This document shows, piece by piece, positions 27,401-36,400 of a stretch of 64,000 nucleotides of DNA. A program made the position numbers. Source of the DNA: Escherichia coli (GTDB lineage Bacteria; Pseudomonadota; Gammaproteobacteria; Enterobacterales; Enterobacteriaceae). The stretch is taken from assembly GCF_003991155.1 (NCBI RefSeq), contig NZ_CP031297.1; one strand, given 5' to 3'. Positions within the stretch are counted from its first letter, which is position 1. Every line of letters starts with the position of its first letter.

Positions 27401-30400
27401 CGGCCAAGTGTTTGGAAGGCGAGCCATCATAGAGTCAGTAGAGAGAGATACTTTTGGAAATCAATAGTATTATGATTGGTACAAATGAGTTGTAGCTCCA
27501 TATTTTAAAGGGGGATTTCAGAGAAATGAAGAATAAGAAGGTAATAACTTTGATAATGGCCGCAGCCGCATCATGCTCGTCAGTCTACGCCGCGACATTA
27601 CCGACCAGTGAGGTAGACGCATACATACTTGCGATGAACACCATGTCACCTATCACTGCAAAGTACACCATCCAGTACAAGCAAGCGGTTGAGCAGAAAT
27701 GCAATACAGCCCTGAGCGTTGAGCAGCTCAACTCAAAGGCATTCACCAATGTTGTCCAGGCAATGGTGAGTAGTGAGACCGTCGATAGAATGGGGCTTGA
27801 TGCTGCTGGTGGATCACTCCAGGATACCCTGTCTGTGATCGGCAAGAACGTCACATGCAGTGACCTGAACGCGCCATTTAAAGCACTCTTGGATGATAAG
27901 GACTTCACCAGAAAGCATCAGCACCTATCGAAGGTGCTGCATACTTGGAATGAAGTTGTTTCTCAAAGCAAACCCTGAGTAACAAAAAGGAGCCTAACTG
28001 GCTCCTTTTTTAATGGGGATGATGTTACGTTCGTGGACGTTATTTTCACTCGGGATATGTAACGTTGAAAAAGGCGTACCGACAAGAGAGTGGTCACATA
28101 GCTCTCCATAATAGATGAGCGACAAAATCTCTTGCTCGTTGATTTTTCCCACCTTAAAAAGGTAATTGATTATTGCTGTATCCAGTAGGTCGTGACACCC
28201 ATTAAGCAGATCCACGATATTGGCCGCAGCTTCATTTTCCTCTCCGTCATCTCGACCGGCTAATACTGATTCAACCCAAGCCTCAAGGCTCGGATGTCCC
28301 TCAGCGAGCTCTATTTGACGGCACTCGTTCTCGATCAACCCTGTGATTGCTTCGTTGAGCGTTCCGCCATAAGTCGGCATGTTGAGAACAACTCCAAATC
28401 CGGGGATTTCTTTTTGGATTGGCTTCGCATCCTTGGGAGCTGATTTCAGCCACAGGAAAAACCAGATCCCAGAGCTTATGTCTTCCGGCTTGACCTGGTT
28501 GGCCGCAAGGAATTTGGAAACCTCGTTACAGATGATGCCATCTGGCGCTGCCATCTCGTAAATACCCGCCATCAGATCTTCAAGGCTCTTATACATATTA
28601 TCTCTCGCACCTGTACATGATGTTTTCACTATCGTTGTTAAGCGTTTTTTCAGCAAGTATGTTCCAGCGAGACATCTTATACCATTCCATCTAAATCTGT
28701 AAAATTACCGTATTACCGTAATTATGATAATTACGGTAAATAAATTTAAGTTCTTCTTGCTGTTGTTCTACTTATTAAAATGTATCTTTGAAAAAGTAGA
28801 GTTTTTGGAATAGGATAGGTGGTGCTGAATGCCCACTTTTTACAAGGAGCGCGACCAGTGATTTTTGATGTAAGAGCGACCTTTGAAGTGGCACTCCAGA
28901 CGGACACCCACCTGGTACTTATCGATCTGGATCAGGGAGCATCAGTTACGAACGATGCTGATGCAGTGATCGCCTGGTTGGCCGCAAACCTCGAAGGTGG
29001 AATTGGAAAACGTAAGGTGTACTACCGGGACACCGATGGACGCTTTGATGAGCTCAAGGTTAATGCCGGTGCTTTTGCCGGATTTGCACCTTGTAGCGAA
29101 GGCCAGCAGACCACCTTGGCTGGGATGCTCGGCCAGTAACTTTGTGTGGAGAACTCGATGTTAAACAAAAACAAATTTGAGAAAGTTTTAAAGAGAATCC
29201 TCGATAAGAACTTTGAGCGCTGCTCTATTTGCAGGAAACCATTCCCTGGACCGTGCCATACTTTTGCTGGTTTGGATTCGGACAATAAAGTTCAGAACGT
29301 AGGTTCTTGCTGTCGGACCAGTATTGTGGACTTGCGGCATGGAGGTGTGTATACGACCGCTCCTGTAGATACTCAAGAGGGGCAAAGTCAGGCGCATGAG
29401 CTACTCGCAACACATCCTTGTAAGGGGATGATGGGGCATGCTTAGCAAAAAAGTCTTTTTCATTAGTCAAGCGGAGGCCGAAAGACTGGAGCCGGTTCCC
29501 GGTGCGGCCATGATCTCCATAACTGACCCAGACAAGTCCCCTGCCGCTCTCGGACAGTGGGGGCAGTTGTACCGCGATAGCTTCTATGACGGCGGCTATT
29601 CTGAGAACACCATCCACACGATGAAGGCAGCGTTCCGGATGAATTACGCCTCTTACATTGACTCATCCCAGGCTGAAAAGCTGTCCACCTTCCTGGATGG
29701 ATTGGTTGGTAGCGGTATCGATCAGATCTTCGTTCATTGCTATTACGGAGAATCCAGAAGTGGCGCGGTAGCGCTGTACCTCCAGAACAAACATGGATTC
29801 ACTCCGAATAAGCCGATCACCAAGCCCAACCGAACAGTTTACGAATTGCTGTGCAATCCAACCAAGTTTGAACCACTGATGCAAAGCTACGAAACGCAAC
29901 ATATGGAGGAGGAACTACCTCTTCACCTCAAAATATGGGATTTTCTTCTCGTTGCGGTCGGGCTTAGGAGGTGACTTTGCACGACACAAACAATGACAAG
30001 GAAGAGCTAGTTTCACATGCGAAAGTAAATGTTCCGGCAGAACAAAGCATTCGCGGTGAACTGTTGCCGTCATCGAGCTCGCTCCGGAACATCCAGGACA
30101 ACCCCGCCGTCGCCTATCTGGTGAGCCTCGGGTCAAAGCGAAGCAGGCAGACCATGAGCTCATTCCTCAACATTGTCGCCAAGATGATCGGGTTTCAGAA
30201 CCTTCGTGACTGTGCATGGAGCTCAATGAGGCGGCACCACATATTGGCGGTGCTGGAAATGCTGGGGGATGCAGGGAAGGCTCCGGCAACGATCAACACC
30301 TACCTGTCAGCGCTCAAAGGGGTGGCTCTTGAAGCCTGGACGATGAAGCAAATTGATACGGATAGCTTCCAGCACATTAAGCAAGTCCGTTCAGTACGTG

Positions 30401-33400: not shown

Positions 33401-36400
33401 GTGCTCCAGGATAAGGATGTTCAGCTCAAATTGCTTCGTAACTTTGACGCCTCAGAACAACGCAAAACTCGATCTGATAAAGCGGCATCGGAAATCCTTG
33501 GCACCTTCGGTGGAGTCACTATCGAATCCTTCCCTGGATGAATCAGCGTGACCGCGTAACAAGGCTTTTCCGCAGCCGGAAGGGCTTTGTCCCACACAAA
33601 CAATTCCAATCGACAGCAGCATGATATATAATTATGATAATTACCGTATTATCGTAATTATCGTAAACATTACAAATTAAAAGGAACGTTCTCATGGCAA
33701 GAAAATTGGTTGAGTTTGACGATGTAGCGGCTGCGGCCCAAAAGCTCAAGGACGCCGGTAAACGCCCAACGGTCATCGCTATCAGAGACATCATTGGCAA
33801 GGGGAGCTTTACCACCATTTCAACGTATCTCAAACAGTGGTCAGAGGAACACTCCCTCGATGAAGAGCTGGTAGAGGTAGTCCTTCCAGAATCGGTTATG
33901 AGCGATGCTGAGCTCTTCCTACAGAAGATCTATACGGTAGCCAAAGCAAGCGCCGATGAACAGCTTGAGCGCGAGCGTGAACTGCTACGACAGAAAGAAA
34001 TTGAGTACCAGGAAGATATGCAGCAAGCCGTGGACATGGCAAATGATGCCACCGAACGGGCTGAGCTACTGGAAGAACAACTTGAAGCTCTCACCAACAA
34101 AAAATCAGAGCTCGATGCGGCCCTTGGTAAGGCAGAAAACTCGCTATCCCTCAAGTCTGCGGAGCTAGAACGCTCACTGGCTGACATTGATAAGCTGGAA
34201 AAGCGGATCGTTGAGTTGGAGGGCAAGCTGGAGGCGAAAGCCGCAGATCTGACCCGAGCACAGGATCACCTGGAGCAAGCTAAAAGCGAAAATCGCTCTT
34301 TGAGCCAAAAATTGGCAACTACAGAGGGTGAGTTGGAGGAGCAAAAAGGCAAGAGTATAGAGCAGACAGAAAAGCTCCGGGCCGCTCAGGAACAAAAAAC
34401 ATCGTTGAAAGAGCAGCTCGAAAATGTACAGGCCAAACTGGCCCAATCACAGGACTCCCTTGCCACAGCCAAAGCTCATGGCGAATCCGCTGAACGAGAG
34501 TGCCAGCGCCTATCTGGAGAGGTAGAAAAGCTGGACGCCAAATTATCCAGCGCCGAAGCAGAAGCTCGCGCTCTTGTTCAAGACAAAGGCATGATGGCTG
34601 GTCAGTTGCAGGAAAAAGACCAGCAGGCCAAGAGCCTCGAACAAAGACTCAATGATGCACTGACCAAAATTTCTGGGTTGGAGCAAGAGCTCGCTAAAGC
34701 TGGTAAGGGAGGGAAAAAGAAAGAGGAAAACTGATGGCGCGAAAGGCTAAATATTCAGAAGAGTGGCGACACAGAGCTGCGGCTCTTCAAACCAAGATTG
34801 AGGAGGCTATGACACTAGCCACCTCATCTATTGGCGACTATCGCTGGTTACACCGTCTCCATAGTTGGGTTACGGAGGTGGCTCAAGGTAAAGCCCCAGA
34901 CTGGTGGACAGATCTGGATTGTGAAGTATCCCTCCCCCGAGAAGAAAAGCGGATCAGTACGTTCCTCTCGACACAAAAGAAGCGCATCACTCTCCAGATG
35001 TGTTTGTCGTAGGGGGCCTCATGAAACAACTTCCTCCTGACACACCAGAACAATCACTGATCACTCAGTACAAAGGGCCTCGCCTTGTCGTTAAGGCCTA
35101 CGCTGGAACGGGTAAAACCACGACACTGGTGAAGTACGCCCACAACAACCTCGATTCACGTATCCTCTACTTGGCATACAACAGGGCTATCCGCGACGAG
35201 GCAAGAGAAAAGTTTCCTGCAAACGTAGACTGCAAAACGTCCCACCAGCTTGCCTACGCCACTATAGGAAGGGGCTACCAGCACAAACTCTCCGGCAACC
35301 TAAGGCTCACCGATATTGCCCAAGCGGTGAATACCAAGAACTGGACGTTTGCCAAAGATATTCTCGATACGCTCAACGCCTTTATGTGTAGTGCAGACAT
35401 GCGGATTCTTTATACGCATTTTGCTCGCGCCGATACGGGTAAAGTGCTTACGTCCAAACAGGAGAGATACCAAATCCAGGTGGTCGAAGGTGCTGAGCTC
35501 ATATGGAAACGGATGACAAACGTTCAAGATCCGTTCCCGACCGTACACGATTGCTACCTCAAACAGTATCAGCTCGGGATGCCGAATCTGTCTCGCCGGT
35601 ACACCACCATTCTTTTTGATGAGGCACAAGACGCTAACCCCGTAACAAGTAGCATCGTCCTACAGCAGAACTGCAAGGTAATCCTGGTTGGAGATCGCCA
35701 CCAGCAGATCTATAGGTTCAGAGGCGCAAACAACGCCCTTGATAGCAAAGAGCTCATGAACGCCGACCAACTCTATCTCACTCATAGCTTCCGCTTTGGC
35801 CCCAACGTTTCGCTGGTGGCAAACGCCCTTCTTGAACTCAAAGGTGAAACACGACCTGTTGTTGGCCGGGGACCAGCAGATCAGGTACTCATGTTTTTAC
35901 CAGGTGACGTGGGCCACCGCGCAATACTTCACCGAACCGTCATGGGGGTTATAGAGACGGCGCTCTCTGCGACCGAATCCGGAGCGCAGGTATTCTGGGT
36001 CGGTGGAATCGACGCTTACCAGATCAATGAGCTCCAGGATTTGTACTGGTTTTCGATGGCAGAGCCAGACCGGGTAAAGAATAAGAAACTGCTTGATGAG
36101 TATGAAGACTACTTCGAGTATCAAGAAGTAGCGAAGGCGACCAAAGACCCTGAGATGATGAGGGCTGTCAAGATCATCAACAGCTACGATGAAATCCCTG
36201 AACGACTCACCACTCTACGACGCAATACAGTCAAAGAAGAGTTTGGGGCTGACATTACGGTCTCAACAGCTCATCGGTGCAAAGGGTTGGAGTGGGACTT
36301 TGTTCAGCTCTATGACGACTTTCCGGATGTCCTGGACCCAGAGCTCGACCCAATGGCCCGTGACGATGAAATAAACCTGCTCTACTGGTTAATTGCATTT

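Follow-up and report, generated by a model that had tools for sequence, protein, structure and literature searches.

The plasmid locus described here lies in a stretch of 64,000 nucleotides from Escherichia coli (contig NZ_CP031297.1, assembly GCF_003991155.1), referred to below, at its full length, as the window, which we identify as an IncC (IncA/C2) plasmid backbone. Two intergenic regions of this backbone, 4.9 kb apart, carry arrays of a short palindromic repeat. The first array (site 1) lies beside the recombination hot spot RecHS, ahead of a string of genes that includes the tyrosine recombinase gene int, and the second (site 2) is found directly upstream of kfrA. We report the structure of the repeat, its position relative to predicted promoters and its distribution among plasmids, and weigh the proposal that both arrays are bound by the plasmid's own KfrA protein.

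The region from 27900 to 36500, which holds both arrays, is 100% identical to many IncC plasmids, pR148 being an example, and 1273 plasmid records match in all. An open reading frame (ORF) without a name, here called orf128-like, occupies 27994-28596 on the minus strand, divergent from the int gene string; it is probably R55_128 of Hegyi et al. (PMC5587640). The string itself, on the plus strand, comprises in order ORFs of 93, 99 and 178 amino acids (aa), int, a DEDD exonuclease gene, an ORF of 163 aa and a tus-like gene (32666-33541), the end of which is 90 bp ahead of site 2. The kfrA gene (33694-34734, plus strand) is followed by an ORF of 92 aa and a gene for a UvrD-like helicase, and a gene for an Rhs protein and a putative immunity gene also lie in the neighbourhood of the arrays.

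The repeat unit and its two arrays

A preliminary description of this sequence had pointed to an identical 16-bp motif in two separate promoter regions, and the identity is exact: TAATTATGATAATTAC is found on the plus strand at 28719-28734, in the divergent intergenic region ahead of the int string, and again at 33629-33644, upstream of kfrA. Allowing up to three mismatches, the 16-mer has five matches in comparison to 0.24 expected from 100 shuffles. Both copies sit, as was also described, among TTACCGTA-type repeats, and ATTAYCGTA occurs five times in the window, at these two sites only, against 0.31 expected.

The motif had, however, been described as a 16-bp operator-like element, and here our analysis differs. 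The repeated feature is a pair of arrays, each made of four tandem palindromic units of 9 bp (sometimes 8 bp) with the consensus TTAYSRTAA, and the putative recognition unit is this 9-bp palindrome, in arrays of four to six. The consensus occurs eight times in the window, where 0.95 occurrences are expected, and six of the eight are within the two arrays. Each of the other two is an isolated TTACSGTAA, one in each of two IS110-family transposase genes of opposite orientation (11558-12562 and 19697-20701), and both are probably there by chance. A table of 54 units from 12 arrays on different plasmids reveals that positions 1-3 and 7-9 are nearly invariant, while positions 4-6 vary as Y-S-R and so preserve the 4-1-4 palindrome. 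The 16-mer TAATTATGATAATTAC consists of one unit, TTATGATAA, with the constant flanks of its neighbours; it is shared by the two sites because the TTA and TAA positions of adjoining units are fixed, and in the IncA plasmids it is not common to their two sites. Its exact identity is, on this reading, a by-product and not itself the conserved feature.

The search for arrays covered the window and the rest of the backbone of a close IncC relative (NZ_CP082173, 1-110000), which is 100% identical to the window over 27900-36500. Only the two arrays were found; there is no third within this range, nor are even two adjacent units seen elsewhere in it. Other autoregulated DNA-binding genes of the plasmid, in parAB-053, higBA and the acr1/acaDC region, have no such array nearby.

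The array at the kfrA promoter

Site 2 (33632-33666) consists of the units TTATGATAA (33632-40), the 8-bp TTACCGTA (33641-48) and two copies of TTATCGTAA (33649-57 and 33658-66), and lies 30-65 bp upstream of the kfrA ATG at 33694. A promoter for kfrA is predicted at 33604-33632 on the plus strand, with the -35 element TTCCAA (33604-09), a spacer of 17 bp and the -10 element TATAAT (33627-32), of which the last base is the first base of unit 1; the array spans about -8 to +28 of this promoter. An overlapping alternative, TCGACA and TATGAT with 17 bp between them, is also predicted. In an alignment of the region the pattern TTYCAA-17 bp-TAKAAT is conserved in IncC, Shewanella, pB39_C, Photorhabdus and IncA, and the array positions are conserved next to spacer sequence that is free to vary. 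Since the array reaches from the -10 element across the transcription start, KfrA on this site would obstruct RNA polymerase, and site 2 is probably a KfrA autoregulatory operator, new for IncC.

The number of units at site 2 is polymorphic among IncC plasmids, in keeping with its nature as a tandem repeat, with four, five or six units in variants of 151, 160 and 169 bp; the corresponding identity bands contain 496, 337 and 126 records, the lowest band also taking in diverged relatives. Array copy number likewise differs among near-identical IncC plasmids (L015, L017, L038, L039 and L011), from four to five at site 1 and from four to six at site 2. Such differences could tune the occupancy of the arrays by a regulator, and might be usable as a typing marker.

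Just after the tus-like gene, at 33564-33589, lies a terminator-like hairpin (GCTTTTCCG, loop CAGC, CGGAAGGGC, then TTTG). Compensatory changes are seen in it in pB39_C and the Photorhabdus plasmid, which suggests that kfrA forms a transcription unit of its own, apart from tus.

The KfrA protein and its neighbours

KfrA is a protein of 346 aa with a match to the Pfam family KfrA_N (PF11740) over residues 9-121 (E=8.8e-23), and residues 125-340 match coiled-coil families only. An AlphaFold model of residues 1-120 (mean pLDDT, the model's own confidence score, 82) places helices at 8-20, 27-34 and 39-52, followed by a long helix at 66-118. The motif GxGSxTTIxxYLxxW, which lies in the predicted recognition helix, is kept in all of the KfrA homologues aligned (29-52% identity), and its tryptophan W49, in the predicted helix 39-52, is invariant in them; we infer that it is equivalent to the invariant W51 found at the end of the recognition helix in KfrA of the IncU plasmid RA3. 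The KfrA_N domain, the coiled-coil tail and the invariant tryptophan together, as judged from sequence and model, identify the product of 33694-34734 as a KfrA-type protein. A sequence search of the PDB with the N-terminus gave no relative, a word-indexed protein search gave fragments only, and a scan of genome contigs gave just two near relatives.

The ORF directly after kfrA (34734-35012 in the window), of 92-101 aa and of unknown function, is conserved across the IncC/IncA, pAsa4-family and L047/L051 loci examined, and often overlaps the kfrA stop codon. By analogy it may encode a KfrA partner comparable to KfrB or KfrC. Beyond it, the UvrD-like helicase gene is truncated in the window by an insertion (36386-46776) that is found in few IncC plasmids only; the cargo of this insertion is an RND efflux pump, complete with MexC/MexX-like adaptor and NodT-family outer-membrane channel, besides a Mef-like MFS transporter, a two-component system resembling AdeR/AdeS and a GGDEF protein.

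The array beside RecHS

Site 1 (28705-28739) is built of the 8-bp unit TTACCGTA (28705-12) followed by TTACCGTAA (28713-21), TTATGATAA (28722-30) and TTACGGTAA (28731-39). Units 2-4 together make up a perfect 13-1-13 palindrome, TTACCGTAATTAT-G-ATAATTACGGTAA, at 28713-28739, and 27 bp (28740-28766) separate this from the core of the site-specific recombination site RecHS, the inverted repeat IR2, at 28767-28800 (TCTACTTATTAAAA, spacer TGTATC, TTTGAAAAAGTAGA). Hegyi et al. (2017; PMC5587640), who mapped the RecA-independent recombination hot spot RecHS to this intergenic region, described a perfect 13-bp inverted repeat with 1-bp spacing, IR1, located 27 bp upstream of the 14-6-14 IR2 core; the palindrome at 28713-28739 matches this description and is IR1. 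Their report gives no function to IR1 and names no recombinase, and it mentions neither the unit structure of IR1, nor the second array at kfrA, nor KfrA. No paper was found on an IncC KfrA operator, on the second array, or on IR1 apart from that report, in a literature coverage that was incomplete, such that earlier work is possible.

Two predicted promoters flank the array. For the orf128-like gene, a consensus scan and reading of the sequence place a promoter at 28676-28703 on the minus strand, with the -35 element TTTACA (28703->28698) and the extended -10 element TGgTATAAG (28684->28676); the -10 position is conserved in the alignment of the region, and the array begins 2 bp upstream of the -35 element. 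The int-operon promoter is predicted at 28788-28816 on the plus strand, with its -35 element TTGAAA inside IR2R and its -10 element TAGGAT at 28811-28816. A gap of 48 bp separates it from the array, which occupies about -84 to -119 relative to the predicted start. IncC, IncA, pESI-like and Aeromonas pA plasmids all retain this promoter, the pESI-like and Aeromonas plasmids with no array beside it. This placement makes classical repression of the int string by site 1 doubtful, and with it the co-regulation of that string that the preliminary description had suggested. The position of site 1 would favour an effect on orf128, or a structural role beside RecHS.

When the site 1 regions of IncC variants, pB39_C, a Photorhabdus plasmid, pT413A and IncA are aligned, two invariant islands stand out, namely the array and RecHS with its promoter, and the spacer between array and RecHS is almost free in sequence with a constant length of 26-27 bp. 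Site 1 has four units in the window, and a fifth unit, of 8 bp, is found in other IncC plasmids, such as peH4H and pPM57. A C/G swap that keeps IR1 palindromic in IncA was considered as a compensatory change and set aside as weak evidence, the unit centre being always C or G and the chance of such an outcome about one half.

The overlap of the RecHS core with the predicted int-operon promoter (28767-28816) recurs in the same layout in pESI-like Salmonella and Aeromonas plasmids, and homologues of Int, at 60-81% identity, are found widely on plasmids of other types. The overlap suggests, by analogy, that the int operon is autoregulated by its recombinase, as in the ResD (D protein)/rfsF system of the F plasmid, in which the core site of a tyrosine recombinase overlaps its own promoter. 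Homologues of Int of about 60% identity are present on F-type plasmids, and Hegyi et al. (PMC5587640) draw the same analogy. It extends to the RecHS/Int module only: it leaves the TTAYSRTAA arrays unexplained, and these are absent from RecHS modules outside the A/C-like plasmids.

Distribution of the arrays among plasmids

An array lies directly upstream of kfrA in IncA plasmids, pB39_C and the Photorhabdus and Shewanella plasmids, and likewise in the Aeromonas pAsa4 family, the KfrA of which has 52% identity to that of IncC. A Methylobacter plasmid with a different backbone, whose KfrA is only 29% identical, also has an array upstream of kfrA, and the features listed over the first 50 kb of its 61.8 kb include neither a Tus gene nor an int gene. 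A profile of the KfrA N-terminus also picked out metagenomic contigs (KfrA 34-42% identical), most of which carry an array upstream of kfrA, among them L042, L046, L047, L049 (a Rep3-type plasmid) and L050; the units upstream of kfrA in L043 and L045 are degenerate only. In all, arrays precede kfrA in more than 10 lineages, at 29-91% identity and with unrelated backbones included, and in those Aeromonas and IncA plasmids that have insertion sequences or inserted genes between tus and kfrA, the array stays with kfrA. The architecture of the repeat, its conservation and its strict association with kfrA are evident from these comparisons.

The second array, of the site 1 type, is present beside RecHS in IncC, IncA, pB39_C, the Photorhabdus plasmid and pT413A, and the pESI-like and Aeromonas pA plasmids (L008 and L009) have RecHS without an adjoining array. 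A scan of the whole of pAsa4 found the kfrA array only; of the 61.8-kb Methylobacter plasmid the first 50 kb were covered, and there, as in pAsa4, the motif is restricted to a single locus. A metagenomic A/C-like contig (L051), with a KfrA 34% identical and the gene order int-Ter-kfrA-uvrD-traFHG as in IncC, carries the kfrA array and a second array directly abutting RecHS, and the two-site layout must therefore predate the split of IncA and IncC. That this layout has been kept in several lineages argues for its having a function.

Likeness to known KfrA operators

The closest published precedent is KfrA of RA3 (Lewicka et al. 2021, PMC7783346), a strong autorepressor with an operator, O_K, of five 9-nt repeats over the -35 and -10 elements of kfrAp. 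At least three to four units are needed there, full repression requiring four repeats irrespective of their orientation, and binding to the operator is needed for plasmid stability (PMC7783346). The likeness to RA3 extends to both partners: short iterated units of the 9-nt type lie at the kfrA core promoter, here four of them at 33632-33666, and the protein combines an N-terminal helix-turn-helix, with a conserved tryptophan in the recognition helix, and a coiled-coil tail. The RA3 unit TGTATTGTA is, however, non-palindromic, unlike the palindromic IncC unit, and the RA3 repeats are positioned around -35/-10, whereas the IncC array, at which KfrA binding is predicted, extends from -10 downstream.

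KfrA proteins of R751 and pPOP15.9 also bind iterated motifs at their own promoters, and kfrA is autoregulated in the IncP-1 plasmids RK2 and R751, where KfrA forms plasmid-associated foci and has an accessory role in stable inheritance (PMC7783346). In contrast to the IncC arrays, the site bound by RK2 KfrA is a 24-nt imperfect palindrome, and IncP kfrA promoters are co-repressed by KorA and KorB (PMC7783346). The IncP gene furthermore heads a kfrABC operon, whereas kfrA of IncC precedes the 92-aa ORF and the helicase gene.

A more distant parallel is offered by the metboxes of MetJ and the heptads of omega (pSM19035), head-to-tail units of 7-8 bp to each of which one dimer binds, cooperatively along the array; omega arrays are found at several promoters of one plasmid and also serve as centromeres. 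These proteins differ from KfrA in their ribbon-helix-helix fold, and their units in length and sequence, and the analogy is one of architecture only.

Discussion

We propose that both arrays are bound by the plasmid KfrA, site 2 being its autoregulatory operator and site 1, that is IR1, a second, distal array, and we would put the probability of this at roughly 0.65. KfrA is the best candidate binder because arrays lie upstream of kfrA even where the homologue is distant, and because of the match to the RA3 operator. The preliminary description had suggested one common binder, possibly the KfrA-like protein; the occurrence of the same unit at both sites, the way in which arrays follow kfrA and the published precedent all favour it. 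Binding by KfrA, repression, and any role at RecHS are what we infer from these sequence comparisons.

A number of observations weigh against this proposal. All of the promoters in this analysis are consensus predictions, and Foldseek searches with the AlphaFold model of the N-terminus returned only non-significant matches to helix-turn-helix and winged-helix structures (E>0.2). In RA3 the motif is found at one locus, as opposed to the two IncC arrays 4.9 kb apart, and an Aeromonas plasmid related to pAsa4 that has kfrA with its array has no array beside its RecHS; the absence of a RecHS array from the pAsa4 family means that KfrA does not require site 1 for its function. RecHS recombination proceeds without IR1, the removal of which from RecHS clones had no effect, and deletion of the RecHS ('oriT2') region from R16a/IP40a left conjugation unchanged (PMC5587640). 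Lastly, tandem TTACGATAA arrays without kfrA nearby are present on inovirus-like contigs, so that a motif of this type is not peculiar to KfrA.

The viral arrays came from a scan of viral contigs for three tandem units, which gave mostly coding repeats of low-GC giant viruses besides the inovirus-like arrays. Three inovirus-like contigs from IMG/VR with Zot-like and secretin genes (L020, L031 and L033) have four to six tandem intergenic TTACGATAA units, for example at 2993-3046 of L033, and L027, with a P4-like integrase, has three tandem units. The arrays in inovirus-like and other mobile elements presumably have other binders.

Could another protein of the plasmid be the binder? The gene just upstream of site 2 encodes a true member of the Tus family (NCBIfam NF002810, E=7e-159; TIGR02648, E=2e-30), with 68% identity between IncC and the pAsa4 family, which also keeps the array at kfrA, and the arrays might be Ter-like sites that serve as fork barriers or as a Tus operator. 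Known Tus proteins, however, bind as monomers to one asymmetric site of about 23 bp, which the tandem palindromes do not resemble; the E. coli Ter core consensus GNRNGTTGTAAYKA has no match with up to one mismatch at the arrays or anywhere in the window, and on that empty scan Tus was rejected as the binder. The array moreover follows kfrA and not tus where insertions intervene in the Aeromonas and IncA plasmids, and in the Methylobacter plasmid, L046 and L049 it accompanies kfrA with no Ter gene close by. The tus-like gene also has conserved upstream elements of its own, including the loosely Ter-like CTACTATGTAACCAAT (32615-32630), and we regard a role of the arrays as Tus sites as very improbable. 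Upstream of that gene (32395-32630) a perfect 16-bp inverted repeat, TTAGACCATCATGCAA at 32395-32410 and TTGCATGATGGTCTAA at 32593-32608, flanks a long polypyrimidine tract; its right copy TTGCATGATGGTCTAA and CTACTATGTAACCAAT are conserved between IncC and the pAsa4 family, and this region may be the site of the Tus-like protein itself. Scarcely more probable is a role as accessory, arm-type sites for the Int recombinase at RecHS, controlling recombination or its directionality. Accessory sites beside core sites are common in resolution systems, site 1 keeps its 26-27 bp distance from the RecHS core, and the second array of L051 abuts RecHS, but site 2 has no recombination core and is located in the kfrA promoter, and kfrA has its array also in plasmids in which an int gene of this kind is not seen. 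RecHS occurs, too, with an Int of 76-81% identity and without any array in Aeromonas pA and pESI-like plasmids. Site 1 fails as a RecHS accessory site in that it is not always beside the core (L008 and L009) and is not needed for recombination (PMC5587640).

Somewhat more room must be left for two other explanations, each of which we nevertheless consider unlikely. The one is that a different regulator binds both arrays, be it a small, unannotated protein of the plasmid, the H-NS-like Acr2 or a factor of the host, for example Fur, and that kfrA is one target among its targets. Ribbon-helix-helix repressors, MetJ and omega among them, use tandem palindromic boxes, several neighbouring ORFs are without known function, and the arrays are AT-rich, with a 16-mer centre, ATGATAAT, that resembles part of a Fur box (about 11/19 matches, compared by eye). 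The 9-bp phasing and the strict TTA...TAA pattern misfit the 6-bp Fur repeat as well as non-specific H-NS binding, and the Fur box was rejected on the number of matches and its wrong periodicity; an ArgR/PepA-type accessory site was likewise rejected, there being no resemblance to an ARG box on reading the sequence. No DNA-binding domain was found with Pfam, NCBIfam or PHROGs in the orf128-like ORF or in the ORFs of 93, 99, 178, 163 and 92 aa, of which those of 93 and 178 aa are also present in RecHS modules that have no array. The array goes with kfrA, moreover, on unrelated plasmid backbones and in different hosts (Enterobacterales, Aeromonas, Methylobacter and metagenomes), which have no other gene in common. 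The other explanation grants that site 2 is the KfrA operator and holds that it alone is functional, site 1 being a neutral duplicate or a slippage-prone repeat. Removal of IR1 from RecHS clones without consequence for recombination (PMC5587640), the variable number of units, and the pAsa4 family, which does without site 1, all agree with this. Site 1 is nonetheless conserved in IncC, IncA, Photorhabdus, pB39_C and pT413A, beside a 26-27-bp spacer that has diverged almost completely with its length kept, and a second array on the RecHS side is found also in a lineage with a KfrA of 34% identity; both facts argue for selection.

If KfrA is the binder of both arrays, its N-terminal helix-turn-helix domain would engage the TTAYSRTAA units cooperatively, with the coiled-coil tail behind it. 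On site 2, from the -10 element across the transcription start, the protein would exclude RNA polymerase and thereby repress its own synthesis. On site 1 it would most likely modulate the orf128 promoter, tie the RecHS region into a KfrA nucleoprotein scaffold, or both, whereas classical repression of the int operon from there is improbable. A bridge from KfrA on site 1 to site 2, over the 4.9 kb that separate them, is a further possibility. A speculative extension, which we think improbable if a little less so than the alternatives above, is that in IncA/IncC and related MOBH plasmids KfrA filaments bridge the kfrA and RecHS arrays and loop out the 4.9-kb int-exonuclease-tus segment. Were this true, dimer resolution, and perhaps replication termination, would be physically coupled to plasmid positioning and partition, KfrA would have a structural role beyond autoregulation, and the 26-27-bp phasing of IR1 and RecHS would be accounted for.

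IncC plasmids are prominent vehicles of multidrug resistance, and a large part of their backbone is without an assigned function. The present analysis proposes a testable function for IR1, which was described in 2017 and left unexplained, together with a probable operator and recognition unit for the IncC KfrA, and it outlines a subfamily of KfrA, found on several types of plasmid, for which the operator would be predictable from sequence. Should the autoregulatory part alone be true, the system would be an ordinary example of a known regulatory design; if KfrA binds beside the resolution site as well, multimer resolution and plasmid positioning, which have so far been studied separately, would be linked.

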